Shown here: piece by piece, positions 1-36,442 of the stretch
How the letters are laid out: each line of letters begins with the position of its first letter
Numbering within the stretch: position 1 is the stretch's first letter
From: Asterionella formosa
Taxonomy: Eukaryota
Reading direction: 5' to 3'
Length of the DNA stretch: 39,670 bases
Assembly (NCBI GenBank): GCA_002256025.1
Contig: NKIB01014897.1
Span: forward strand, 1 to 39,670
Notes under the pieces: generated by a model
The model's database searches: none
Told to the model about the DNA's origin: nothing
Seen by the model: only the letters and a program-made list of their open reading frames with translations
Program-made: the position numbers and the translations under genes

Positions 1-47
1 GAAAACCGAGGGGCAATTGGTGTCTGTTGTCTTGCCAAAATGCGAAC

Positions 48-156
48 ATATGAAATATACAAAATATATTTTAATGATGGGCAATATCGGACCTTTGGCA
101 ATTTTCGAGGTGAAGATAGGAAATATATGAAATATATTTTACATGATGGGCAATAG
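48..156. repeat. Imperfect direct repeat (ATATGAAATATA...TTT(T)A(C)ATGATGGGCAATA x2), possibly subterminal repeats of a transposon running off the left edge
   Basis: Two similar ~36-40 bp AT-rich units at about 48-88 and 121-156, both ending ATGATGGGCAATA. Confidence 0.55.
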
Positions 157-233
157 TAGGCTAAAATTGACATCTATGCTAAATTTGTGGGCAGTAGGTA
201 AGCGAATGACGCGACGATAGCTAGAGCGGGAAT

Positions 234-430
234 TGCCTCAACAATACCCTTCTCGGCGGCTACTTGCCTTCTCGTATACATGTGTACTCGACTGGGATTG
301 CACTCGTAGGGTGACCTTCTCGCAGCGCCGGGGGCGCCACTCGTACGGTCAACCTACTCGCGCCACCTAGCCTCGAACACATGTATACTCGCAGGCAAGA
401 GACCACCTCGGGCGTGTATTGCCTTCAGCA
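234..430 (-). other. Long imperfect fold-back (RNA or ssDNA hairpin) with periodically spaced CGAG/CGAG tandem G.A motifs
   Basis: CTCG occurs at 252, 271, 287, 303, 319, 340, 357, 372, 388 and 407. The spacers are pairwise reverse-complementary around a centre at ~330 (e.g. TATACATGTGT 275-285 / ACACATGTATA 377-387). Most non-Watson-Crick positions are G.U on the minus strand. Confidence 0.8.
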
Positions 431-3400
431 CACATCGATGCATAAGCAGCACAGTACACCTCCTGTTACGAGTAAGGAACCGATGTTTGTAACCGGTACT
501 CCACCGTCGTGGTGCTGGCACGAGGTACCTGGTACCTGGTATAACATTTCACTTCGTGATATCTCAACACTGTACTATCCGAACATCCGTTACTCCTTAC
601 TTACCAATAGTAGCAGCTACCTAGCGGTAATATTACGGTACCAGGTACCTTCTATTGAATGGTTGCTACGGTACCGGTAGGTATCCTGGCGGTAAATATC
701 TAAATCGCTTCCTCGGTAAATTATTTCCATGCAAAATTTACATTAAATCTTGACATGTTGGTTCTTTTATCGACCATGATGAATTCGAATCTCATGGTAT
801 TAATATAACAGGAGGCCAATTTGAAACAGCAAGCATGGCTGCTTCAATGTAACAGATTAGGTGTGTATCAATCAAATCCGGAGGTAAGGTCCTTTCCTTA
901 TTTTTGGTGTAACGATTGCTTTTTTCGATCTGCCTTCGTCTATCCCAATCTTTTTTCCTGTTGTTGTTGTAGTTGACGTCAAGGAAAGCTTCATGATATC
1001 CACACAAGCACACACACATCATAATGATCCTAAACTACTGATATAATGAGTCGGACTGTAAAGTGACCGACACCAAACTTGTTTTTGAATGATTTGTGGA
1101 AGAAAGGAAGCTTTTGTAACGCTCTGCTTCAACGGCAGCACTCAGTGCAACGTATAGTACACACGAACATGTAAATACCCAAATGAAGACTCCAACTTAG
1201 GACACCTTCAGAACCCCTCTCGGGGTTATGAGAACAAACTTGTTGTTATTCTTTGATATCTGATGGGTTGAGTCTATTGTACTACATGCTGTATACTTAG
1301 TGTTTGGTACAAAAGAGAGGGGCGATGACGACACTTTCTACAGCACCCATACCGTGCTTTTTCATGGGATGATGGTTGCAAATTACAACTTTAATATACC
1401 CCGAGCTCCTCTTCTTCTTTTCGATTTTTCAATCCTTCCTTCCTTGCTTGCTGCTAACCACTGCCATTTTGCTTGAAAACGATTCAATTCGCCACAGGTT
1501 ACGGAAGTTATGGCCGATGTTCTTCGAGCAATGAATCAGACCATTGATGTTTTATCTTTGTTGCGCAATCACTCTGTAATACTTCAAGCCTTCTAACTGT
1601 ATAGAAAACAGAAACATAACTATCAGCAAGTCATCCTTGAAACAATTGATGCCCATCTCCTTACATGACTTATTTTTACAACTCAGAGTTGATTTGCACA
1701 TTTGCAGTGCTGTGTCACATTCCATATAGCACTTAAATGTAATCCCTGTGCACTCTCAGGACCATTCTTCTTATCATTTTTGGTAGGGCAACACATTATT
1801 TGAACAAGCATCATGCCATGGCTACTTGATTTAAACTGAAAATATTCATTCTCCATGTGAAAAAATAAAATTTATATCACCCAAAAGTATCACAAACATT
1901 CAACTTCAGTTACAGGCTGGCTACAATTATTTGCTTCTTCCTCCAGCCTAATTTGATAATTATCCAGCACTCAAGCATGTAGGGAATCTATGCAGAAATG
2001 TACAAGTATAGAATCTATAGTTGATACTCCTAGTACTTGAATCTATCTACATTGACCTACTCATATATTTATGATGTACAGAATATACATATTAATCATT
2101 CTGTTTAATTCTTGATTGCCAATGTAGTAACATCCTGCTATGCTTGACTTTTTATATTCCTTGTCTTGTAGCTTGTTTCAATTCATACTGCGACAAAATA
2201 TTCTGAAGCTCACATTGTTATTTCCTTTGGTATTACATCTCAGCCGTGTATTACATGAAGTGATGTTCACATAATATGCGGCTTGTTGATGTTGAGAAGG
2301 CAGGGATTTTGAGACATCTGTAAGGACATTGCAAGACAAAGAGAAGCCGTTTATTCAGAAAGGAAAAATTATTCACTCTTGAACAGGCATCATTGCACGA
2401 AGTTGCAACATTAATGCATCACACACTGGCTTCCTTCTTGTCCTTGAAATGACTTCTTCATTGACCTGCAAAGATTTACATAAAAACAGTGTGTCAGTAA
2501 TTCATATGATAGAACTAGCAACGGCAGAAAGCAACACACAGATGTGTTAGTATTCAACTGTTTCTCAGGGCAGTCGAATTGAAACAACAAACTGGCATGA
2601 GCCAGCCAGACAGCACCAAAACTCACTGATGTGTTCAAAAGAATGTTCCTGTTGTGAAATGGACGGCTAAAATGTAAAATAAATGTAGAGAACAACAATA
2701 GAACCATGTGATTTATCGCTCGCTTTGCTGATACAATGACAAAAACTGAAGATTGAGCTTACCTTAAAGGTCTCCATTACGGGTCTCCATATTGTATCAT
2801 TTCACCTTCTATCAATCATGCTATCGAAAGAACACTCCTTTTCTGAAAAGGCCTGTTCAAATGTCAAATGAATGTTGAAAACAACAGCATATCAGTATGA
2901 GTTATCCCTCACTTGGTGATATGCTGATGGCAAAAATAGCAAGAAAATAAATCTTACCTCAAAAACATTGATTGCTTACGATCTCAATGTTGCATCATTC
3001 CACCTTGTGTCGTTGCAACAAACAATATGTGAGTTCTTCGCTGATGAAGGATTTGTTAATGGTGAGGCACTGAAAAGCTAGAAGGGGGATGCCGGAAACA
3101 TCCAACTCCCCAAAACAACAGCAATGATATGGATGCTTCTTAAAGCGACATGGAAACAGCAATGACCCACAATGCAATGGACATGGAATGATTGACTATG
3201 AAGTTATACAATAACGATGACAATTCCAATGATGACGCCATGGAACTCCAAAAACCCTAGCTAGATTTGTAAAAAAAGTAAGCATAAAGCATAAAATAGC
3301 CACTGGAGCCGACAGCAAAATTTTTCGATTATTACAATTGCGATGGCTAATTGGTAAAAGATTATTGTTGCTAACACACATAATTATTGTTTTGAACACA

Positions 3401-6171: not shown

Positions 6172-7187
6172 GATAATTACCGGTATTTTACAGGTGTATA
6201 TGTGTGCTGTTTGTACCACCGGTATTTAACATGGTACCTGGTACCAGGTACCAGGGTAGCGTCACTCAATTTCCGCCAGGATGCATAATCAAAATAATAG
6301 AACGTTACTTTATCCATCATGGCTGTCTAGAAAAATTTGGGTGTTTGGTGCCACCTCGAAAAAATGTACGGGGGGGGGGCAGGACAACGAAGTTTACGGT
6401 ACCAGGTACAAGGTACCTGGTACTGGTATCTGGTAACCTACCGGTATATTAATTCTTTGTCACTGTGTTAATTCATACATACTGATAGTGTACGATGCAT
6501 ACGTAGGAATACCGGTAATCTCCTTGACTACTGGAGCTAATTCTGCAACCAGGTTCCAGGGGTACCCTGGTACCATGGTAGGTACCAGGTACCTGGTACC
6601 AGCTCCCGGTCACTTTTGCCCTCATGATCAGCCAATTAACGGTGTTTATTAATCCACAGGACGAGCGAGGCGGCGGTCGAGCTGACGCACCGAAAGCGAG
6701 CGAAGTCCAGACGAACTCGTCATAGGCCGCCAGTCCAGAAGTCTTTTTCTTGCTGTACATTTGCATTTGCTTCCATGTGAATTAATGCTTGCTTGGTTGA
6801 AAACCGCGTGCAAGCAATGATGGGAATATATTATGCATGCAATGATATATATGGGGAGTATCGACACATTTTCGTTTCCCTAAAACTCTGCACGAGAGGT
6901 AAGACTAACGGTAGTGAGCCAAGGAGTGACTCCCTCCCTACTAGACGGAATAGAATGGCCTTAGGGACGGCAACGAGCGGTTTCGATTGCTCTGGAGCTG
7001 CTTAAAGTGTTTGAGCGATAGATTCGAATCTGACGAACAACGAGAACGATGATTCTGTGACAAACGTGTCATTTTCGAGGATCAGACCTCTGATGCGTGC
7101 GCTAACTTGACCTGCTTGCTTTCCTCCCCTTCTTCTCAGTTCTCACAGGGTCAGCCGACTTTCTTTGTCAATTCATATATTGTCACC

Positions 7188-11389: not shown

Positions 11390-14300
11390 TCATTGGACCT
11401 TCAGAGTGCTCAACATTTGTGCAGCAAGTTGTTGAACTTCCGGCTCATAGTCAGAAGCAGCAACGGTTTTGAGAACCGCCAAGGATTTCATCACGTGCAT
11501 AGAGTCCAAGTGGCCTACTCCACCACTGCGAGTTTGGTCAATGGTGATGATGGCTACCAATAGTTTGAGTCCCGCAGTTTTCACCAAGGTTACGGCACGG
11601 GTTCCTTGGTCATGTGGCGGATGTTCGATGGAATTCAGCGCCCAATGGAAAATCAGATGTACAGTCTTTGCAGGGGTGCCAATCATTTCGACGCATTCCA
11701 ACGACTTGGTTCGGACAATCAAAATAAATACAACTTGCAGTGCATTAGCGGCGGAAAGTGGATGGTTAGAATCAATGCTGTACGTCATTGTAGCCCGTCG
11801 AATCATCAAAGGCATTGTTGACTTTGCCCAACGCTTCAAGAGTCCGTCTTTTTCCGGGCAACGCTTGGATACTTCCAAAAAAGATTTCCACAAACAAAAA
11901 CGCATTTCGATTGTTAGCGAAAGGTTACTGTCAACATTAAACAACCGTTTAGCAATCTTTTCCGCCCATTCAAGGTCTGGGGAATCATCCGTCAATATTT
12001 CACTTAAAGACAAAGCAATATCAGACATGTCAGATTTTCCGTATGCAAAGAATTGTTCCAAACAGCTCGCGAAGAGTTCAATGCATCCGAGTGTCTGCAA
12101 CTGTGTGAGATCTCGGTGCTCAGTAAGCTGATATGACGGTGTTGGTATTTCGCACATTAACAGAGCAAAGGCTACAGTGGCAAACAATCCATCACTGCTG
12201 CCAGGATCAACAGAAACTGTCAGAAAATACACAACAGCATAGAGTGCAATCTTTGCAGGCTTGAATGATTCACCTGCCGGCGCAGAATAACCATTTAATG
12301 CCTTTATGAAAGCTGGTTGACAAATTCGCTGAAAGCAAGAGCAGGCAGGGTCGATGTCGAAAGGTAGGCAGTGTCCAGCCACTTCCGCTGATAGACGTCT
12401 TTCTTCTGGTCCAAAACACCCTTCAGGTTCCTCAAAGGTCAGCCTCGCCGAAATTTCATTCGCTAGCAAGGAAAGGGTCGACACTGTATCCGCCTTCTCG
12501 AAACATTCGTTGCCAAATGAAAATTTCCAAGCGAGTTGGTAGAGCTGACTCGGAATGCGGCGAAGTAAAAGGAGCGGCGACAATCTCTTAAAAATATCGC
12601 ACCGAGATTCAGATTGGCTTGTAACTTGAAGGTGGTGCGAGCACAACTGTACTACACTCCGTATTCCAAAGAAGACGGATTGACGACTGCGCTGCGAGTC
12701 AAAGTCGTAATTAGCAGGTTCACCAACGAATAAACCCAACATCGCAAGCAGTCCAACACTGGAAGGTGACCTCAAGACAGCTCTGGCGATAGCGAGCAGG
12801 ACTTGGCAATACCCTCCAAGACCTAAACTTTCTACTAAGAGGACTTCTCTCCACCTCGGAGCAAAACACTCACAAATTTTCGATGCCTTCGATTCGCAGG
12901 AAACTTCAATGGAAAGCAATTTCTCGACAAACGAATCAACAAAGTGGTTAATTTCGTTGCTCCTAAGACACTCCTCAAGTTTCTGTGACATGGAATTTGA
13001 AAGCGCATCACAAATTTCTTTGGAAGTTGAATCATTGTTTGTCAAAGTGCATGTCACATCTATGATCAAAGGGACAAGAAATTCAGTCGCAAGATGCCGG
13101 AATAAACTAGTAGTTTTCATTTTTCGCCTGAGAACTGAACTGTGGCCCACACAAATAAAAAGGAACGTCGCAGCGTACTGATCAAGTTTATTTTCTCCGT
13201 CACTGACAATGCATGAAAGCACTTCAACTTTCATTGGATGATCACCTGACAGCTCCACGAATTCGTCCAATCGAGTGGAATCACCGTCAATGACAAACTT
13301 AGCAAGCAAGGCATATATTGACGGATTCGCTGTGTCGATGTTGTCGGTCGTTTCTCTCGACTCCATTTTTCTCACAACTTCTACAAGCAAGGAAAATATT
13401 GCTGCTTTCGTTTCTTCACCTTGTGGTAGACCGCTACTCTCAGACCAAAGGTAGTTTCTAGGGTTTGCGTGAGATTAAGCATAGAGGCAGGAGCAAAAAG
13501 TTATAAAGCAAATTTCATTTCCACTTACAATATCGTGAGAATCATGTCAACAAGGCCGTCTTGTAAGCTTGTAATCAATTTTTCAACAACTACAATATTG
13601 TTAGCGGCGATTGTCAAGTCCTGCAAGTGCCTTTTGTTGTTGCCCAGCCATGCTGCCAGTCCACGAATAGCAAAACTGCTACTTTCTGAATCTTTCGCTT
13701 CGGAGAGCCTTGCAATAATAATTTTCGCTTCGATTTTATCAGGCTTTGAGCAGACGGTCTGAACTAGTCCTCCAAAACATGAATCTCCAATTCGTAGCGT
13801 ACAGTTGAATTTTTGCCTTGCTGGGTCCTTCAATACGGTTCTCCAATTGGAAATGACCGCTAAAGTACAATGCTTCCGCGCAAGTTGGATTCGTCTTGTT
13901 TCGTTAGCTAGGGATGATTTTATCCATTTTTGTTGAATTTCCAAAAGACAGTCTAAGCCGGGAAGAGCAATGATAAACTCATCATAAATCGAGTATACTT
14001 CTGAGGACAGTGCCACAATGGTACATGCAGCCTGAAAAGCTTGCTGTGATAATCTCGATCTATTGGTGCATCCATCATTTGCAATTTGTATCAGACCAGG
14101 ATAGACCAAAGCAAGTAGATCACGCATAACATTTGCGTTTTCAGCTAAGCATTTCAACGCAACAATCTCAAAAAAAGTTGCTGCCCCGAAAGCCGATACT
14201 CGAGATTTTCTGTCCTTAACGAGAACGATAAATGTTGCAGGAAGTTTCATTCCATAGGAATGCATCATTTCATATCCTAATTCCACCGCACTTGAAGAGT

Positions 14301-14955
14301 CGGCATCAGTCTGGGCCAATCTATCAAACACCAGCATCCATGCGTGCCTCCAATGTGACGCGCTCACGAGACAATTATCAATGAACTGCTGAGAAATTTG
14401 ATGTGGGTTTGATACTTTCGGTATCTTCCATAGAGTACGAAAAAATTCCTTTTCGATGAAGGAACTCTGTGTAAGCGATATGGGCTCGTCGAACGAGCCG
14501 TTGTCACATTGGACGAGAGTTGACGTCTTGTCAATAAATGAGCAACTCGTCGTTACCTTCTGCAGTTTTTCGGTTTCTACAACGACTTCATGAATCTTTC
14601 CAGAAGACACCTCTCGAATATCAATGCTATGTTGGTCCGAATCATCTCCAATATGAAGCGGCAGCATCAGTGACGGCTTACTACATTCCGAAGAATTCAA
14701 GAGTTTGCTGTTCGATGATCCGCTTTTTCCTAACAGATTCTGCGAGTTCGACGAGCCAATGAAAAATATCGATTGCTGATCGTTATATTCCTCCACTTTT
14801 TCTTCCACGTCTATCAGCGTCGACGACGACGCCTGAGCATGGCTACTAGTCGGTCTGGAAGCAGTTGCAATCTTCGCTTGCTTCGACAATGATTTATTTG
14901 ATTCAGATAAAAGGAACCCTTTCCGAAGACCACCTAGATTATTTTTCTTTGTCAT
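11390..14955 (-). CDS. Uncharacterised large alpha-helical (ARM/HEAT-like) protein, ~1164 aa; exons 14955-13529 and 13457-11390
   Basis: The 486-aa and 666-aa ORFs join in frame through a 71-nt intron (GTAAGT at 13528, TAG at 13458). Leu-rich helical composition; N-terminal GGLRKGFL motif. IFKRLSPLLLLRRIP and EERRLSAEVAGH resemble, from memory, a plant ARM-repeat family. Confidence 0.8.
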
Positions 14956-15100
14956 GCTGGCTATTCTGGATCGAAGGAGTGGCACAATTCACAGATGATC
15001 ATAAGCAAATCCGGGATGAATCCGCTTTCTTGATTTTTTTGTCGTGGTCCGGCTATAATTGCGCTACCAGTATACCGGTTCTTACTACCGGTAATTGGTA

Positions 15101-15423
15101 CTGCCCTCTGTCTAGCAACAGTTGCATCTATAATTCCAATTTATCCGGGGCCATTTTGACTCCAACGATTTTCTCCGGCTCAATTGCCCCATTGTGCGGA
15201 TTGCTCTAACGTACAGAATCATATATATATATTACATAGAAAGATTAAAAATGGCAACTACGACGTTTAAAAAAAACGTTTTTCGGCTTTTTCGACGACC
15301 ACTTTTGCTCATCTCGAGCAAAATGCAGATGCATGAGGACCGGCATCATGGGAGGATTCGAACTCCTCTCACCAGCACTGGTGGTGCCGGCAAATCGATG
15401 CAACTGTTACTAGACAGAGGGAG
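15101..15423. mobile_element. Stowaway-like (Tc1/mariner) MITE, 323 bp
   Basis: Left TIR CTGCCCTCTGTCTAGCAACAGTTGCATC (15101-15128). Right TIR reverse complement CTCCCTCTGTCTAGTAACAGTTGCATC (15397-15423). Flanked by TA on both sides (15099-15100, 15424-15425). CTCCCTC(C/T)GT plus a TA target-site duplication is the Stowaway signature. Confidence 0.88.
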
Positions 15424-16413
15424 TACCAGGTACCATGTACTCTTCCTGGTAACTGGTGGTGGGTAGACTACCTGATGGTAATACTGTAGTACCCTTGTCT
15501 CTGCTGAGGTAATGCCTATGACAAAACAGGAACAAATGACAAGAAATGGAAGCAAGCCCGTGACATCGTTTGGTTGCCAGTAAATTTCGACAAACTGATT
15601 TATTGCTGGTCGAAAACAGTTTTTATTTTTTGCACACCCGGATGTATGCAAAATGTTTTTATATAAACAACCATAATATTAGTTGGTCGCATGGCTAATG
15701 GTATATTCAACATGGATGTTGCTTAGTAACAAGAAAATATAAAGTCTAAACTATAAACATGTTATGTGTTGAATAATCATAATGATGTTTTGAAATTAGG
15801 AGAAAAGCATCAGCCATAAAAAGTTATTGACGAATAACTTTTTTGCACGTTTGATGATGAATATATACAGTATATGATTGATGAAATAACAGCCTGTATG
15901 GTAAATTAAATAAATTCAATACAACCTTTCTTCTGACATTAACCAAAATAGAACTTGATAGAATTTTTTAAATATTTGGCTTGGGTGAGCCTATTATGGT
16001 TGTCCAAGCAGATACAAAATATTTGGTCTATATGATCAACCAAGACAAAAAACTTAGAGTGAAATCAACTGTAATAAAACCAAGATGATGAAGCATTGCA
16101 TTTTGCATTCAGATAACAAATTGTATAGACAAGCTTATTCTGTTGACAAAGTCAAGAGTAACCCAGGCCAAGCAAACAATACTAGTAAGCTGATTGTGGT
16201 TAGAAGCTTTTGGTCAGTGCAGCCTGCCTTGCCAGAAGACCACAAGGTAAATTAAGTCAGTCATCTTCTCTATGTGGTTGTGTTTGACTTGATCAGGCTG
16301 TAGTTTACTTGTTCAAGACAGGAAGAGTGATACATAATAAGAATAGTTTATGATGCAAAAATTTCAAGAACTATGTTAATGTTTTAGTTGAGAGGGAAAG
16401 TCTCCTCCCCCAT

Positions 16414-19705: not shown

Positions 19706-21059
19706 GTGTTCTTGATTTGTTTTGCACTTTTTAATTCGCTGCTATGATTACTTTAATTGACGCAATGATGCAAGGGGGTGTGTATCGACAAGGGCGTCGT
19801 GGGGATTTGACACAACCTGTAATTGCATTCACAATAAGGAGTGGAAACGGCACGGACAATCCCTGTCACAACGGTGCTGATATTACCGGTACCTGGTACC
19901 AGGGTAGTCGAATTCTTGGCCTGATGCCAACAGTACATGCAAGAGGCGAGGGATTCTTGATCATACATAGCAAACCGGGTACCTGGTACCGGGTACCGGG
20001 TACGGAGTACCTGGTATGTAATTGAATACGTAAAAGAGCAACCCTGGAATAACTGTTAAAACTGTGTTCCTTTTTAGTAGGTAATGTAATTCTTATTCGA
20101 GTCTTGTCGTGTCCTGATGAGACCGTCGTATGTCCTGAATGATTCAGGTACATATATATGTGTCCGCCTTCTTTTTGGCTACTCCTCATGATTTTTGTCA
20201 AGCTGTTCATATAATTCATTTAACGTTCATTGATAATTTGCCTTTTATTGAATGACAACCTATCTACGGCGAATCCTTCGCATAGACCATAAGTGATACT
20301 GCCTATAAACAAAACTTCCCGCAACAGATAAACGATTTTTGAAAGATGCACGTGATTTAAATCATCCCCCTTGTAACGGTTATGTTTGGCGAAGTCACGA
20401 AGAAATGGTCCATTGTACTATTGTAAAACACTGATGCTGCTAAAATTTAAAGATTTCTTCCCTCAAGAATTGACGGTTGCATTTCTTCCCTCGGAGTGGG
20501 AAAACCAAAGGAGTTCTTCATGGTATTTGTATGAAGTAAGTTGCTATGACAGCAGAACATACTCTCCCTCAGTTCACGAGATGTCTGTAGAATGCCTGGT
20601 GAATCGGATGCTAGTGAACGAAAAATTCAACATATGCCGGTATTTATCTATATCAGTGTACCTGGTACTAGGAGTAGTAAAAGTCGAATTGGTGGCTCCT
20701 CAGTTTTATGGCTAGAATATCTATACGTACTACGGCTGAAATAGTACTACTGGTCGTCTTGAGCGATCTGCCACCCGGTTTAACAAGGTTGGATTACGAC
20801 CACGTGGAGTATCAAACTAATAGAAGTAGGTACCGGTAATTTGTTGAATAGATGAGCTTATCAACAGTAGTTAAAATCAAGTATAGCACCCATTCAACTA
20901 CACTGGTAAGCTAACATCAACATATTTAATAGGCCGGTGTTTGTCAAGTTCTCACATGTTCGAGTTCTGATATACTTGATATAAGAACTGTAACCCTGTA
21001 CACGAATGTATCATTGCATGGGATTGCTCACTTTCCCACACTAAAAGGAAAACCTTGCA

Positions 21060-21461: not shown

Positions 21462-22695
21462 ACCACTGTTACATTACTAGCATACTTCAGCATCACTAGG
21501 CATTACCACAGACTCAGTGTCAATGACTCTACAATCATTACCCTGTCAATTTACTGGGACAAAAGCTACAACATATGGCTCATTTCGTCCTCTGATATTA
21601 GCCATGTATGCAATAGTACCTGCTGGCACAGGTGGTCTACAACATCACTGATCCTTAAGAATTAATGCTATTCTCTGCCCATTCACTCTGAGTTGGGGTA
21701 TGCGTCATCCTCCATGCCACAGGCTTCACAGATGGCCAAATATAATTTTTTTGTGGTGGCATACATACATACATACCGGTACATTCATTCGGAATAAGTA
21801 CAAATCGCCAAATGCTATTTTAGATCAGCTGGCCACCCAAAATATTTACAGGAAACAAAATAAAGCATATCACTGCAAATCATGATAACTATATAAGTTG
21901 AATCATAGTTGAATCAGTCATTATTCCATGTACTTCTAGGGTTTTTACATTTACATTGACTACCGGTATACCACTGGGTTGATGACTGTTCCAATCATCA
22001 AAACGAGCATACCAGCATTCCGGTCATAGCAACTTTCGTGGTTACGCAATCTATGCTCGAAGGCAAGTTGCCTTTGTTTTATTGTTATATCTTACTTCGC
22101 ATGTACGCACGTAGAGAATAGATGATGATGGGTGGAAGAAAAATGGGTCCTCATGCATCTGCATTTTGCTCGAGATAGCCAAAAGCGAAAATCGAAAAAA
22201 GCCCATATACCGGTAGGTGCGTTTGCTTGAGTGAAATCTGAAGAGTTTTGCCGCCGCCAGGGTCTGATCGACGTCAGACAGTCAATACTCTGACTGTCCT
22301 GGCCTTCGTCACCATCAGTTTGCACTCGATGATGGCCCTTCATTTTGCTTGCTTTTGCCAATTGCGAAGATGTCCAAAGAAAAAACATTATTCTTCATTC
22401 TTTTTGTGTGTTACCAGCATTTTAATATTTCTTTTTTATCTGCCTCGTGTAGATTTATTATCAGCCACCAGCCAACGTTCCAGCTGCTCACCTGTGGTAT
22501 CAGCAGCCTACCGATATTAATTGCGGTGCCGCGTAATTCTTACAATCAGTAAAAGTGCGGCTGCAGATAGCACCAACAGAAAATCAGCTTGCAAGACATC
22601 GTCCTCGTTACTTGTCGAACTATCTTGCTTTGCCTTACATTCTGTACAGGAGTGTTGAAGCAATAAAGACCACAGTCCCCTTTTCTCGTCCTTCC

Positions 22696-25453
22696 ATGAA
22701 ATTTGATTTTGCCGTGCAATCGCTTATTATGGCGCAAGTTCTTTTCTCGTTGCTCAGTGCATCTCGATATGCATCGTTCAGATTGACTGCTCGTGCCTTC
22801 AGTGCTCCTTCGCGGAGACTAGCAAACGGAGGTCGCTCTCTGAGCTCGAAAACCTCCATTTCGTCTTCCCAGGCTCGCTTTTTCACAGCACAAGTTCAAG
22901 ACGAGGGATTAACGAAGCTCAGTGCAGCTGATGTCGACGACGGTAGAGATTCGGACGTGGACGCACTTTTCGCTCAAATCTTTGACGACGAGCCAGCACA
23001 TTCGAGGGATGCGCTTGATCCACCTTTCTATAATCCCGAAACGACGGACGTGAAGGTACGAGTACACGTTGGTTTTGGTTCGTTGTCAATTTGACAGTCG
23101 CTTGTGATACTTCCTTTCTTTTCAACATGATACTCACACTTTAAATTCATATCCACATGATCTCTAGACTGAGAAGCGCAAATCGCCATCTGAATCTACC
23201 AAAAGCAAATCTTCAAAGGACTTGACCAATCAAGACTTTACTGATGCTGACTTCTTGCAGGTGACAAACCCTCATTGGACCGACGCTGGCTTGCATCCAG
23301 GGATTGTGGATATCCTGAGTGGAAAAGGTATTACAAAATTCACTCCAGTGCAGGGAGAAGCTTTCGGCCCAATTCTTCAAGGCCGTGACGTAATTGGGAG
23401 ATCTAGAACTGGTACTGGGAAGACTCTCGCATTTGGTCTCCCTGCAATGACTCGCATCGCCCAGCTCGCAGAGGAGAGCGGAAACAGGGAAAGGGGCACA
23501 GGCATGATGCGCCGTGGACGTCTTCCATCCATGATTATCCTTTGCCCTACCCGAGAATTGGCCCGGCAGGTGCAGGAGGAGTTGGCTATCATGGCCAAGC
23601 CGCTTGGACTATTTTCCGAGATCTTTCACGGTGGGGTGTCGTACGATCCTCAAGCCAGGGCACTTCGCAATGGTGTCGACATTATTGTTGGAACCCCAGG
23701 TCGCGTTATTGATCACCTTGAACGTGGAAACATGGATCTTTCTGAGTGCCACGTTGCTGTCCTTGATGAAGCCGATGAAATGTTGAACATGGGTTTTGCG
23801 GATGACGTGGAAACCATCTTGGATGGTATTGGTTCCAAGAACAGTGAAAAGACACAGTGCCTTCTGTTTTCAGCAACTACCCCAGATTGGGTCAAAAAGA
23901 TTGGTGATAGATACCAGAAAAATGTGAAATCAATTGATGCAACAACTGAGGTTGGTGGTGCTCGTACTGCCACCACTGTCCGTCATATGGCTATTCAATT
24001 ACCCCCTGGCATGGACTCTAAAATGTCAATCCTTGAAGACATTATTGCTGTAGAAATCTCAAGAGAGAAGGCCGATGACGAAAACAGTAAAGTTGACATC
24101 CATCTTGAGAACAACCCTATTGCAAAAGCTGCAGCGGAAAAGAAAAGAAAGACTGCCGGTGCAATGCAGCAGAAAATCTTCGGCAAGACCATTGTTTTTA
24201 CCGAAACTAAGAGGCAGGCTGACGAACTCGTTTCTGGTTCCATCTTCAAGAGCTTGACAGCTCAGGCGTTACATGGAGATATTGGTCAGAAGCAACGTGA
24301 TTCTACTCTTGCCGCATTCCGTGCAGGGGCCTTCAACGTGCTTGTCGCTACTGATGTCGCAGCCAGAGGAATAGACATTCAAGATGTTGATCTTGTCATT
24401 CAGTTCGACCCTCCTCGTGATGTTGACACTTATGTTCATCGATCTGGTAGAACCGGTCGTGCAGGTAACAAAGGTGTCTCAATTCTATTATTTAGCTCAG
24501 GGCAATCTCGTGACATTGTCCGCATCGAGAGAGATCTTGGTCATGGATTTAAGTTTGAACTCGCTGGTCCTCCGACGACTGAAGCTGCTCTGCGAGCAGC
24601 TGCTACCACTTCCGCCATTGCGTGCAAACAAATTCCCGACGAGACCGCTGAATACTTTATGGACGCCGCCACTAAACTTCTTCAAACTGAAAATGCAGCT
24701 GATATTGTCGCAAGATGCCTTGCTGCCATCTCCAAACGCACTGCCACTGTGCAGACTAGATCACTTTTAACAGGAGAGGTTGGCCAAGTTACTGTAAAAA
24801 TGTCAAATGCAAGCGGACGCCCATTGACTTCCCGCGATGTCATGTTCACTGTTGGAAAGCTCGCACGATTGAGCAATCGCGATGAAGATGGCAATAGTGA
24901 GGGCAGCTTTTCTAGCGACGTCGGAACGATACAAGTGAATGCGGATACGGGTGCTGTTCTCTTTGACATGGATTTTGACGAGGCCAAGAAAATGATTGAG
25001 TTTAGCAAGGGCATCGACACTGGTTCTGATTTTGAGATCGTGAAAGAACTCGAAATCGAACGTGGTAGCGACTTCGGAAGAGGCTTTGGTGGTCGAGGTG
25101 GGGGCCGAGGTGGTAGAGGTGGTGGTGGTAGCAGTTACGGTAGAGGAGGTGGTGGTGGTAGCAGTTATGGTAGAGGAGGTGGTGGTGGAAGCAGTTATGG
25201 TAGAGGAGGAGGTGGTGGTAGCAGTTATGGTAGAGGAGGTGGTGGTAGCAGTTACAGTAGAGGTGGCGACGACAGCTACGGTGAACGAGGAGGTGGTAGA
25301 GGCAGCAGTAGCTACGGTAGTGGCAGTGGCCGGGGATCATCGTCGAGAAGTACAGGATCTCCTTACGGCGAGGGGCGATCCTCGATTGGAAGCTCAGGTC
25401 GAGGAGGAGGTTCCCGTAATCGCTACGAGGGAGGCACCAATGACGGTTGGTAA
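22696..25453 (+). CDS. DEAD-box RNA helicase of the DDX21/RH3-RH7 (GUCT-type) class, probably organelle-targeted, ~881 aa; exons 22696-23055 and 23168-25453
   Basis: Q motif FTPVQ, SRTGTGKT, PTRELA, TPGRVID, LDEADEML, SAT, ATDVAARGID, HRSGRTGRAG; C-terminal RGG/SYG tail. Hydrophobic then Ser/Arg/Ala-rich N-terminus. Phase-0 intron GTACGA(23056)...TAG(23167). An alternative ATG lies at 22729. Confidence 0.92.
25112..25255 (+). repeat. Coding tandem repeat, 5 units of 27-30 bp encoding GRGGG(G)GSSY
   Basis: GGTAGAGG(A/T)(GGT)n(GGT/GGA)AGCAGTTA(C/T) x5 in the helicase tail. Confidence 0.95.
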
Positions 25454-28759: not shown

Positions 28760-29484
28760 TCGGAATGGACCTTCTTAGCTTCGACGGCTAACGAGTTATT
28801 CACTGAAGCTTGACTCAGAAAGCAATGAACTTTTGCTTTCGATTGAGGCGTTGATTGAAACAACTGCCTTGAATATGTATCACAACAACCGACGCCGCAG
28901 GGTATAATACGGAGGAAGTATTTCTTTCTACCTGATGCATAATAGGGCACGTATCCCTCTGCTGTCTGCTTCTGCCTGCTTCCCATCCACTGCCTAGAAA
29001 ATGAAGCTCATATCCTTTCTCTAAACAGTGCCACAATGAAAATCATAAATCCAAAAAACTGAGCAGTATAATGGCATGTGTCATGTGTATGTACATATCG
29101 ACATGTGGTACCTGGTACCAGGTACCAGGTACCCTGATACCGGTACCTGGCACCACTTCAATAACAACCGGTATGTGCCCCGTAACAGCATCAGGATTTA
29201 TACTCCTACCAGTATTCGTAGTATACGGGTACGTATGATGTCAAACGTAACACTGCCCCACCCCATCAAATCACATCGGTGTACCGGTATTTTGTATGAA
29301 CCACCTACAAATGCATACCGGTAGCTCACGAAGCTGTTTGAAGACCGTGGACTCTATTTATGTACTACCCCCAGGGGCAGTCCAGAGTCCAGAGTGCGTC
29401 AACACATATGAGGATGTCTACCGGGTATACATAGAATACATTTTTATATGTTGTCTTAAAAATTGGGTTTATGCATCAACTTTT

Positions 29485-29514
29485 TATAATGCACAGTGCT
29501 ATAATGCACAGTGC
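29485..29514. repeat. Perfect 15-bp tandem duplication TATAATGCACAGTGC x2
   Basis: Seen directly at 29485-29499 and 29500-29514. Confidence 0.9.
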
Positions 29515-30001
29515 CTGAATACTGTGTACCTGGTACCAGGTACCGGGTACTCCTCAGGCAGATACCAGGTAATCTCCTTCAATATCATGTTGACGATTGT
29601 GCACATGCAATTGAGCTCATTCTATTTTATGTGGCCATCTGTACGTCAAATACAAGAAGCTGCGAAACCCACAGTTAACATGATCTTAACCTAACTAATG
29701 AATGCAACAAGTAGGACAATCTTGCGAAAGCATGCAACTTGATAGATCCAAGATGCAGGGGGGCGAGATAACGACGGCCAAGTATCGTCATTTCATGAAC
29801 CATTGGATCACCAGGGGCTTTTGTGCGGCAAACCTAGGCAAGCTATCCACAATAACTACTTTGCCACTTCCTCAAAGTGGCATGCAATCAGAAGCATGAA
29901 AGGAGTTGATTCAATTCAATTTTCGATGGTGGAAACTGCAACAGGACACTCTGTGGTCTTGTCATCGAATCTTGACATGCGAACTCATGCTACCGGTAGG
30001 T

Positions 30002-34924: not shown

Positions 34925-36130
34925 CTATCGTGTTTTCAGCAGATTTGTAGGTACAGTCATAGGACCATTCTTCACCCTAACTCGATATAGATTGGCAGTA
35001 CTGGAAATGTATAAGAATCCATCATCACCAATAGTTAGCGAAACCGGTCTTTCTGGTAGTTGCAAGTGTCCCAGAATCTTGTGGGGCGCTGACGACACAA
35101 TCAAGACTCCATCGTCGACTCCGACGTATAGATGCTTGTTCTTGTCCATGACAAGTGGCCCAGGTGTGGCAGAAAATTCTGATAAATCTAAAAGATTCTG
35201 GGTTTCTTGTTGACTTTTCCCCTCTTCGTTATCGAGTAATATAGGAACTGAGACTAATTGAACCTTGTCGTCATCATTATCCTTGACAATAGCGTAGAGC
35301 CCTTCCCACAAGGCATCCAGGGCAATTCCACCGATTCTTTCTCTCATTAAAAGGATAGCTATGGAATGATCATGATGCACCTTTGTCCACTTATGAGCCA
35401 TTCTTGATTCCCAAGACGACGCAAGTGGCTGAACTTGCATTGCTCTCTCCAGTCTCCAAATAACAGATTTGGCACACTCCGGTGAATGATCGACTACAAT
35501 CAAATCCCCAAATGGAGTCATGACCATGGAAGTAGGCTGGTTTATCCTATTTTTTTTATTAGCATGACACACATCCGGCACTTCCATCAGCAAGGGTGTT
35601 CTGGCACCTGATACTTCTAGCCGCACGACACGGTTCTCTCCCCATTCAGCAACTAGTAAAGTGCCCTCCAACGAAGTTTCTTTTTCTCTGAAATCAATAG
35701 CAATAGCTCCACTGCCAATCTGACAATTTTGTTTGGATCGACATCCGCTTTGTTCCAAAAATAACGACTTTTTAATGGGAATGGGCCCACCTCCTCGTTC
35801 CCACCTCCACACGCGACCAGCATTGGTAGATGAGCTCAACAAGAGAAAGCCCCGACCAAGATCCGCATCGTGCATCCATGTAGTGGAAACAATATCAGTA
35901 AAATTACTCTGCACGAGCATAACTTGGGCGGTATAAAATATTGACTGCAGGACGAAAGGCTCATGTTGTGCATTCATCGTGGTGATTAGAGAACTAACGA
36001 CTGGAATGCCCAGTTCTCCCGTGAGAGTGAATCGACTGCCGATAAAGTACGCTAAGGCTGGTACGAAGACCGTCAGCCAGGCGAGGGAGGGTGGAATGAT
36101 GTGCTGGGATGGTTGGGTCGTTGTTGTCAT
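34925..36130 (-). CDS. SMP-30/gluconolactonase/LRE-like six-bladed beta-propeller protein with N-terminal membrane anchor, ~401 aa
   Basis: First ATG at 36130 (the ORF track starts at an upstream TTG, 36286). Hydrophobic segment LAWLTVFVPALAYFIG; VWRWE, LLVAEWGENRVVRLE, RINQPTSMVMTPFGDL, MDKNKHLYV, LTIGDDGFLYISS..LYRVRV. Confidence 0.75.
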   Translation of the reverse strand: MTTTTQPSQHIIPPSLAWLTVFVPALAYFIGSRFTLTGELGIPVVSSLITTMNAQHEPFVLQSIFYTAQVMLVQSNFTDIVSTTWMHDADLGRGFLLLSSSTNAGRVWRWERGGGPIPIKKSLFLEQSGCRSKQNCQIGSGAIAIDFREKETSLEGTLLVAEWGENRVVRLEVSGARTPLLMEVPDVCHANKKNRINQPTSMVMTPFGDLIVVDHSPECAKSVIWRLERAMQVQPLASSWESRMAHKWTKVHHDHSIAILLMRERIGGIALDALWEGLYAIVKDNDDDKVQLVSVPILLDNEEGKSQQETQNLLDLSEFSATPGPLVMDKNKHLYVGVDDGVLIVSSAPHKILGHLQLPERPVSLTIGDDGFLYISSTANLYRVRVKNGPMTVPTNLLKTR

Positions 36131-36298
36131 GATGGTGGTGTGGAATACAATGAAAGCAGTAATGAAAAGACCCCAAGTCACGATATCGTATTTTATCGAG
36201 TCAAAATCGAGCAATTTTTTTAAAGCCCATTTTTGACCATATGATACATGATACCCTAAAAAGTTCTGCTCAGTAGGTATAGACAATACAGGTTAGTC

Positions 36299-36442
36299 TA
36301 CCATGGTACCAGGTACTGGTACTGGCACCGGGTATTCATACACGCTGCGTTACCATAACAGATGCATACAGTATAGTTAGCAGGAGTACCAGGTAGTCTA
36401 CCTGGTACCGGTACCGGGGACCACGACAGGTACATACCGGTA
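36299..36442. repeat. Representative cluster of GGTACC(A/T)GGTACC / TACCGGTA palindromic micro-repeats (also at ~490-680, 6178-6601, 15065-15492, 19885-20015, 29106-29570, 31232-31515, 34452-34620, 39280-39500)
   Basis: Dense GTAC/CCGG/CCWGG-based motifs in intergenic DNA, with only isolated copies inside coding regions. Confidence 0.85.

Follow-up and report, generated by a model that had tools for sequence, protein, structure and literature searches.

A rod-like fold-back with evenly spaced CGAG motifs at the sharp end of a dispersed, transcribed repeat in the diatom Asterionella formosa

The nuclear genome of the freshwater diatom Asterionella formosa carries a dispersed repeat whose final piece, 197 nt long, folds back on itself into a long and regular rod, and this fold-back is probably the cis-acting end of a mobile element. 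It lies at positions 234–430 of the stretch of DNA that was analysed, a window of 39,670 nt from contig NKIB01014897.1 (assembly GCA_002256025.1), to which all coordinates refer. The mobile-element reading is considered the best one because a common end is joined to many unrelated flanks, coding capacity is lacking, the terminal structure is conserved and the repeat is expressed in RNA libraries. A more specific form of it, about evenly poised between acceptance and doubt, is that the mobile element is multi-copy, transcribed and non-coding, that the fold-back is its conserved cis-acting end, and that this is most likely a retroelement end. The first-pass annotation, made from the letters of the window, had offered two readings, a structured non-coding RNA or a single-stranded terminal or origin structure of a mobile element. 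A single-stranded mobile-element terminus fits a structure that is multi-copy, has its base at 430/431 and is the best conserved part of its repeat; the other reading is taken up below with the transcription data.

The rod is made up of a left arm (234–329), a tip loop (330–332) and a right arm (333–430), and is assigned to the minus strand. Ten copies of CTCG, which read CGAG on the minus strand, lie between 252 and 410, with starts at 252, 271, 287, 303, 319, 340, 357, 372, 388 and 407 and start-to-start distances of 19, 16, 16, 16, 21, 17, 15, 16 and 19 nt. All ten (starts 252–407) have a single orientation, and every start and spacing given at first pass (ten copies, 15–21 nt apart, one orientation) was recovered. 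CGAG does not occur on the plus strand between 201 and 460; the totals for the full window are 120 CTCG and 142 CGAG. The pattern CTCG-N11-18-CTCG-N11-18-CTCG has nine matches in the window, eight of them in the hairpin, against an expectation of 0.04, and none of 100 shuffles reached nine. The spacers are unique in sequence and pair with one another in mirror order (fourth with sixth, third with seventh, second with eighth and first with ninth), the tip reads GCGCC-GGG-GGCGC, and the outer pairs are CAATAC/GTATTG and TGC/GCA. Folding and arm-against-arm alignment agree on this symmetric pairing, on the GGG tip and on the paired flanks, all of which had been proposed earlier.

Each of the five facing CTCG/CTCG units consists of a C-G pair, a 2×2 mismatch and a G-C pair. 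On the plus strand these mismatches are U.C/C.U; on the minus strand they are G.A/A.G, and there all five units read CGAG/CGAG (C-G, G.A, A.G, G-C) and so have the sequence that a CGAG block requires. Watson–Crick helices of 11–15 bp alternate with the units at a period of about 16 nt, equivalent to about 1.5 helical turns, and the longest perfect duplex in the hairpin is about 12 bp. GC content is 58% in the hairpin and 38% in the upstream part of the repeat (1–233). An outermost sixth G.A pair had been thought to keep the period. On the minus strand, 424–427 faces 237–240 and is followed by the 3-bp stem TGC/GCA, the whole (424–430) reaching the terminus ...CAGCA; the position can hold tandem G.A pairs, but its loop is an asymmetric 3×2 one (GAA/GA) and not a clean CGAG/CGAG.

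The same tetranucleotide, read 5′ to 3′, is found on both arms in all five facing units, which rules out an inverted duplication and concurs with the earlier argument that direct copies of CTCG on both arms do not arise from a simple one. Because the motif has the same sense on both arms, a decayed inverted duplication could account for it only with a pair of identical transversions at every one of the five sites. A two-fold symmetric tandem mismatch, on the other hand, requires the same tetranucleotide on both arms.

Further copies of the repeat, for which a search had been advised at first pass, were found both in metagenome contigs and in contigs of RNA libraries. Scanning of metagenome contigs with the left-arm pattern yielded two, L027 and L028 (about 1.1 kb each), which together with the window copy form the three full sequences used for copy comparison. 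The alignment of each with the window starts at the window's first base, and over window positions 1–430 L027 is 97.9% and L028 92.6% identical to it; past position 430 only 27–31 matches remain among 70–89 compared positions. For the RNA libraries, contigs of four public runs from four studies (X1, X2, X5 and X13) were aligned to window positions 1–1600. In all four runs the contigs cover 1–431 and similarity is lost at 430/431, beyond which the continuations resemble neither the window nor one another, with at least seven to at least nine different ones. Copies in the runs range in identity from above 99% to below 90%, and diverged copies of 80–90% are visible as subfamilies in X1 and X5.

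The sharp end of similarity at 430/431 is taken as the terminus of the element, as copies diverge there at once and loose ends occur there in all four runs. The 3′ end of the repeat is ...CAGCA in all three full copies, and the base of the hairpin (TGC 234–236 with GCA 428–430) falls exactly on this common end. To the left, L027 and L028 stay similar to each other for a further 290–325 nt, up to the ends of their contigs; the repeat is thus at least about 715 nt long, the window starts inside it, and its left end lies beyond the starts of all three sequences. The upstream body of the repeat (1–233) is AT-rich, is cut by the window start, and contains two ~68-nt direct repeats (44–73 and 112–141), closely packed GGCAAT/ATTGCC motifs and TATA-like runs. 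Within L027, a weak direct-repeat similarity to the upstream ~68-nt unit (373–432 against 812–871) lies within the range of shuffles.

Conservation within the repeat is highest in the hairpin. Between copies the hairpin shows 3–5 differences per 197 nt (192–194 of 197 identical; 97.5–98.5%), while window positions 1–211 show 20–21 differences in 205 (with six further gap columns where L028 is compared), an upstream identity of about 88–90%. Beyond the left edge of the window there are 34 differences in 288 positions and 38 gap columns. The difference rates of hairpin and upstream sequence are distinct by Fisher's test, with p from 0.003 to 4 × 10⁻⁵.

Variants in the runs bear on the pairing and on the motif in different ways. 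Among those that dominate, three non-CpG ones (291 A>G, 299 T>G and 368 T>C) each put a G-C pair where the window copy has a mismatch, so that the window copy is slightly degenerate and the family consensus makes a better hairpin. Six hairpin variants are CpG transitions inside CTCG (at 274, 306, 321, 343, 390 and 391), each damaging the motif; many copies thus decay at CTCG, which counts against selection on the motif itself. A count over the 74 pairs gave no double changes, two one-sided changes and five broken cells, equal to shuffles, but since it draws on just three near-identical full sequences this covariation result is uninformative, not negative. The regular array might also be regarded as double-stranded DNA bearing ten head-to-tail CTCG protein sites, in which the fold-back never forms. 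Ten sites in one orientation with a period of about 16 bp would suit such an array; the mirror-order complementarity of the spacers and the pairing-restoring variants would be left unexplained by it, and the idea is highly improbable.

The region 225–440 was folded with RNA and DNA parameters on both strands, each fold being compared with 200 dinucleotide shuffles. With RNA parameters the minus strand folds at -103.7 kcal/mol (z -7.24) and the plus strand at -83.7 kcal/mol (z -4.66); with DNA parameters the values are -47.7 kcal/mol (z -5.51) and -40.9 kcal/mol (z -3.84). In none of the four cases did a shuffle fold as well as the real sequence (0/200 each), so that RNA and DNA folds on both strands came through the shuffle control that had been recommended at the outset. 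The advantage of the minus strand is 20–28 kcal/mol with RNA parameters, across the three copies and an extended fold of L027 described below, and 5–7 kcal/mol with DNA parameters.

The first-pass annotation had seen strand-specific selection in about six G.U wobbles on the minus strand against about one on the plus strand. Minimum-energy folds of the three copies contain 9–10 G.U pairs on the minus strand and 2–3 on the plus strand; the direction was therefore right and the counts are higher, but the asymmetry by itself is not significant (binomial p 0.15). Among six variable hairpin sites, 291 and 306 fit the minus strand only and 367 and 368 the plus strand only. What remains of the claim is that energy and CGAG chemistry favour the minus strand, while the variable sites split evenly between strands. 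On modelled folding energy together with CGAG chemistry, a minus-strand preference appears to be supported.

The chemistry of the CGAG block is known from short DNA hairpins. According to an extract of PMC10085684, CGAG/CGAG in DNA hairpins forms C:G pairs with tandem sheared G:A pairs in structures solved by NMR, and facing CGAG in hairpins from the AUTS2 promoter is arranged as C:G, sheared G:A, sheared A:G and G:C with cross-strand purine stacking. This unit is identical, here by sequence, to the five minus-strand facing pairs of the diatom hairpin. The AUTS2 blocks are contiguous within a short human promoter oligonucleotide, whereas in the diatom rod single blocks stand between unique 11–15 bp helices. 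By analogy, sheared G.A geometry is predicted in the five CGAG units of the hairpin. The CGAG context also yields sheared pairs in RNA.

Tandem sheared G.A pairs, as predicted in the diatom rod, are shared with kink-turns and C/D-box RNAs, and a likeness to kink-turns and SECIS elements had been drawn at first pass. In a kink-turn, a 3-nt bulge is followed by tandem G.A pairs in an asymmetric loop. The analogy fails on anatomy, and the kink-turn was rejected as a candidate: the loops of the rod are symmetric 2×2 loops flanked on each side by a closing Watson–Crick pair, and the 3-nt bulge is missing.

Parts of 180–480 were found in 18 public runs, 13 of which, from 10 studies, are recorded as RNA; these RNA studies are freshwater, estuary, lake and wetland metatranscriptomes. 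Run X5 includes the organism of the window or a near-identical one, as contigs of the neighbouring gene show 0–1 differences and spliced joints at 858/881->1496; a GT..AG intron within the window is confirmed by spliced contigs. Depth over the element in X5 reaches 891 (379–432). X5 cover over the intergenic interval 433–756 is zero, so the cover of the element in this run is RNA and not contaminating DNA. No contig in any of the four runs covers 433–756, although zero cover of 433–1600 in X1, X2 and X13 is uninformative by itself, and the window's own copy shows no read-out into its flank. In X5, depth climbs towards the hairpin from 13 (163–216) to 207 (217–270). The Logan contigs of the runs are strandless.

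These data bear on the proposal that the hairpin belongs to a stand-alone non-coding RNA gene of about 265 nt, transcribed from the minus strand from about 430 to a T-run at 166–163 and lying in a duplicated block, with CGAG motifs as protein docking sites. The abundance of the region in RNA libraries, the superior fold of the minus strand and the conservation of the hairpin above its surroundings all suit such a gene. So does the distribution of T-runs, as 167–430 lacks a run of four Ts on either strand and the minus strand reaches its first one at 166–163; likewise, one X1 contig begins at 168, where depth in X1 steps from 0.9 (109–162) to about 20 from 163 onward. An X2 contig, however, spans 36–417 and is unbroken at about 167, and Rfam has no family for the hairpin. 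At least 700 nt of non-coding sequence is shared on one side of the terminus and nothing past 430, which argues for the end of an element rather than a gene with its promoter. Contigs also cross 430 into unrelated sequence, so an RNA end fixed at 430 does not hold for every copy. The stand-alone RNA envisaged at first pass is thus present in RNA libraries as expected, but is weakened by the long shared upstream sequence and the one-sided sharp boundary, and is judged unlikely.

Some contigs contain joints that skip the inner hairpin: 284->386 (depth 337, in X5), 326->370, 331->378, 331->402 and 367->404. These may be shorter natural variants or may result from skipping by reverse transcriptase. 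Taken as signs of strong RNA structure, the inner-skipping contigs (284->386) would suit a long hairpin RNA that feeds RNA silencing, as a source of repeat-derived siRNA or a miRNA-like precursor, and the hairpin is indeed long, transcribed and repeat-associated. For a Dicer substrate, however, symmetric mismatches every 16 nt and a conserved direct CTCG would be unexpected, and perfect duplexes do not extend beyond about 12 bp. A silencing role is accordingly given little credence.

An alternative type of mobile element is a DNA transposon, of which the hairpin would form the subterminal region, or a foldback element or MITE. In this proposal GGCAAT/ATTGCC motifs would be transposase sites, and during transposition single-stranded or cruciform DNA would adopt the hairpin, as in elements whose HUH or tyrosine enzymes recognise folded ends. 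GGCAAT/ATTGCC occurs six times in 1–431, where 0.14 would be expected from the rest of the window, and in L027 the motifs lie on either side of the hairpin. The sharp terminus, the DNA fold (z -5.5 and -3.8) and the documentation of CGAG blocks in DNA point the same way. A matching inverted terminal repeat was not found, with one end in view and an inverted similarity of 29 nt in L027; no transposase was found either, and the model does not require the abundance of RNA. The end CAGCA is also unlike that of a Helitron. The 3′ end of a Helitron is CTRR, with a short hairpin about 10 nt before it. Here the end is CAGCA (TGCTG on the other strand) and a 197-nt hairpin reaches the very end, so this class was rejected. 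A DNA transposon of any of these kinds seems improbable.

The boundary could in principle be the edge of a block that is subtelomeric or arose by segmental duplication; the hairpin would then be a mere passenger, and the assembly would have broken inside the repeat. The window does begin within the repeat, and the copies are highly similar. Telomere-type tandem repeats, however, are absent from the window and from the outer 290–325 nt of L027 and L028, breakpoints that are exact to the base across at least seven to at least nine flanks are atypical of segmental duplication, and both GGTACC-cluster flanks resemble ordinary gene promoters. A mere block edge is very hard to credit.

Searches for coding capacity and for known families returned little. 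No gene for a reverse transcriptase, integrase, recombinase, transposase or other enzyme was found in the ~1.1 kb of each extra copy or beside the window copy, which leaves the link to Crypton-type tyrosine recombinases raised at first pass a conjecture. No Pfam family was matched at E up to 0.1 by ten ORFs of L027 and L028, and no ORF is conserved between the two. On the plus strand of L027, the 430 nt past the putative primer-binding stretch contain no ORF of at least 60 aa. The Rfam search proposed at first pass was run over the whole window and gave no match at gathering score; the hairpin had no match at E up to 10 either. Within 1–1200, two chance-level matches at E up to 10 were discarded, a snoZ40-like one at 64–128 (E 6.8) and a PsrR1-like one at 720–802 (E 6.3), both outside the hairpin. 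A C/D-box snoRNA reading of the ATGATGGGCAAT units was likewise rejected, as there is no D box, the motif is opposite the CGAG strand and the Rfam match has an E of 6.8. A tRNA scan found none.

In viral contigs, a 16-nt left-arm pattern matched 26 loci, none with a CTCG array around the match, and the tip pattern had no matches. In prokaryote genome contigs the left-arm pattern had no matches, and three loci with the tip pattern were dismissed as chance matches in GC-rich bacterial sequence. Literature on diatom foldbacks, LTR primer-binding sites, ncRNA hairpins and DIRS elements contained no description of the element in the searches made, although that is no proof that none exists.

Among mobile elements, the end of a retroelement would be favoured by the ...CA terminus, the conserved R-U5-like end, the ~68-nt repeats with TATA-like runs and an extra stem in L027. 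In a test of LTR terminal dinucleotides, the ...CA end was seen in all three copies, and the 5′ end lies outside all of them. The extra stem involves the segment just outside the left arm (205–233), which in L027 only pairs with the 29 nt after the terminus; 24 of the 29 nt are paired, or, measured otherwise, the match is 84% complementary over 32 nt. The fold-back of L027 thereby grows to about 255 nt (minus strand z -12.3, plus strand z -7.7). In X1, the consensus of a pair of contigs shares with L027 the first 8 nt past the end, and the post-terminus stem is absent from the window, from L028 and from the eight other flanks. A longer palindrome beyond the L027 hairpin was considered and set aside, as the inverted similarity extends for just 29 nt and its score is within reach of shuffles.

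Two retroelement arrangements can be envisaged. In the first, the repeat would end with the R-U5 end of a long terminal repeat, and the start of the transcript would pair just past the repeat in the style of hairpin priming or self-priming. Members of the Tf1/sushi group, which are LTR retrotransposons, use such a mechanism. Features of the diatom repeat that recall them are the pairing of 205–233 with the sequence after ...CA in L027, a self-folded R-U5-like region and an end that is more conserved than the rest. The diatom fold differs in being far longer, periodic and better on the strand opposite the presumed RNA, and no gag or pol, second LTR, polypurine tract (PPT) or target-site duplication was seen in the ~1.1-kb copies. 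An extract of PMC3601003 describes several chromoviruses as priming from a 5′ hairpin, and stem-loops between LTR and adjacent sequence as existing.

In the second arrangement, the end of the repeat would be DIRS-like and fold back on a complementary region inside the element. DIRS-1, as an extract of PMC7192593 describes it, uses cDNA in single-stranded form, and one of its internal regions is complementary to its extremities. Comparably, the last 98 nt are complementary to window positions 205–331, and in L027 so are the 29 nt that lie past the end. A single-stranded minus-strand cDNA intermediate, as in DIRS-1, would also account for the minus-optimised fold of the diatom repeat. The same extract presents the internal complementary region of DIRS elements as an exact complement; it is free of periodic mismatches, whereas the diatom repeat is imperfect and periodic, and no tyrosine recombinase or reverse transcriptase genes or inverted LTRs were seen.

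Under either retroelement arrangement, the working form would be a single strand, and if the plus strand is the RNA then the minus strand would be first-strand cDNA. Once folded, the minus strand would be a rod of helices interrupted by five or six CGAG blocks of two-fold symmetry, presenting a strand-specific and evenly spaced surface to the proteins that replicate and integrate the element. The corresponding rod of the plus-strand RNA would be weaker, with pyrimidine mismatches at the corresponding sites. It is a point against a retroelement end that genomic RNA of the plus strand leaves optimisation of the opposite strand unexplained; a fold optimised opposite the presumed RNA would be explained if the minus-strand cDNA were single-stranded.

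A protein platform of similar symmetry exists in the type-D retroviruses, whose constitutive transport element (CTE), according to an extract of PMC4330390, is an elongated cis-acting stem-loop with two-fold symmetric internal loops. As in the diatom rod, the same 5′–3′ loop sequence is described there on both arms of the CTE. The CTE as described has two large loops that bind NXF1, whereas the diatom rod has five or six minimal 2×2 loops, and there is no sequence similarity between the two.

Strand selection by a folded end also has precedents. attC sites, the subterminal hairpins of IS200/IS605 elements and the terminal hairpins of parvoviruses are imperfect palindromes at ends, in which unpaired or non-canonical bases select one strand. 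These systems differ from the diatom repeat in being bacterial or viral, shorter and non-periodic, and no matching enzyme was found for the diatom repeat. It is a tentative suggestion, and rather doubtful at present, that diatoms possess a mobile-element end of a type not described before, in which a rod of CGAG blocks forms in one strand only and acts as a ruler-like scaffold for the machinery of priming, circularisation or integration. If true, this would give eukaryotes an equivalent of attC and similar folded sites that select one strand, with another structural principle behind it.

Folded ends mark where mobile elements start replication and integration, and a regular rod of sheared G.A blocks would be a new structural solution to that task. 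If the rod is conserved, it would also represent a natural CGAG block beyond the test tube. The expression of the family in many environmental metatranscriptomes suggests that it is widespread and readily studied. For annotation a caution follows, as a striking hairpin that looks like a non-coding RNA may be the tip of a repeat. Elsewhere in the window are genes for EF3, eIF3a, two DEAD-box helicases, PP2C and RIO-type proteins; the best named relatives of the eIF3a ORF are those of the diatoms Skeletonema, Conticribra, Thalassiosira, Cyclotella and Amphora, at 58–63% identity.

Several spacers of the 197-nt hairpin (window 234–430) contain palindromic cores of their own, namely ACATGT, GGTGACC/GGTCAACC and GGCGCC; these lie at window 275–286, 307–318 and 325–337 and in the partners of these spacers. 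The two hairpin arms therefore resemble each other in direct orientation too, as in the copy on the metagenome contig L027, where positions 614–637 and 651–674 are 75% identical. Such cores, and the direct likeness of the arms, could allow alternative mini-hairpins or dimerisation. Contigs from three public RNA-library runs (X1, X5 and X13) lack inner parts of the hairpin within window 284–386, with joints falling between TACTCG direct repeats. The form with the joint from 284 to 386 is the deepest in run X5 (depth 337); it is either a product of reverse-transcriptase skipping or a naturally occurring shorter variant that has fewer modules.

Upstream of the hairpin, the body of the repeat contains two direct repeats of ~68 nt (window 44–141; L027 369–480), in each of which ATGATGGGCAATA follows an AT-rich run. 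GGCAAT/ATTGCC is enriched ~40-fold in window 1–431.

Clusters of GGTACC with a 7-nt period, in the variants GGTACCT, GGTACCA and GGTACCG, are found in the window at 513–690, 6229–6613, 15423–15456, 19884–20017, 29103–29550 and 36293–36410, and at 747–779 of a second metagenome contig, L028. These intergenic clusters precede ORF starts, or the mapped mRNA start (~769), by 100–500 nt, and in this diatom they resemble a promoter-proximal motif. In two of the three repeat copies compared, those of the window and L028, the repeat stops 35–83 nt before such a cluster, a placement that may hint at insertion near promoters.

Elsewhere, window 15104–15421 holds a MITE-like element of ~318 bp with terminal inverted repeats of 28–42 nt. 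On its minus strand is a tRNA T-arm-like stretch, GGAGTTCGAATCCTCC, at which ARAGORN called no tRNA; a related 54-nt piece (85% identity) lies inverted 6.8 kb away at 22146–22199.

Three long minus-strand ORFs (694, 487 and 455 aa; window 11390–14988 and 34925–36292) matched no Pfam family. In the plus-strand gene at 769–1600, the first intron has two 5′ splice sites that serve as alternatives (858 and 881), each joined to 1496; run X5 also contains a contig with intron retention. Finally, a GUCT-domain DEAD-box helicase has a Gly/Arg/Ser/Tyr-rich tail encoded by a 30-nt tandem repeat (window 25061–25302; 4–5 copies, 81–95% matches).
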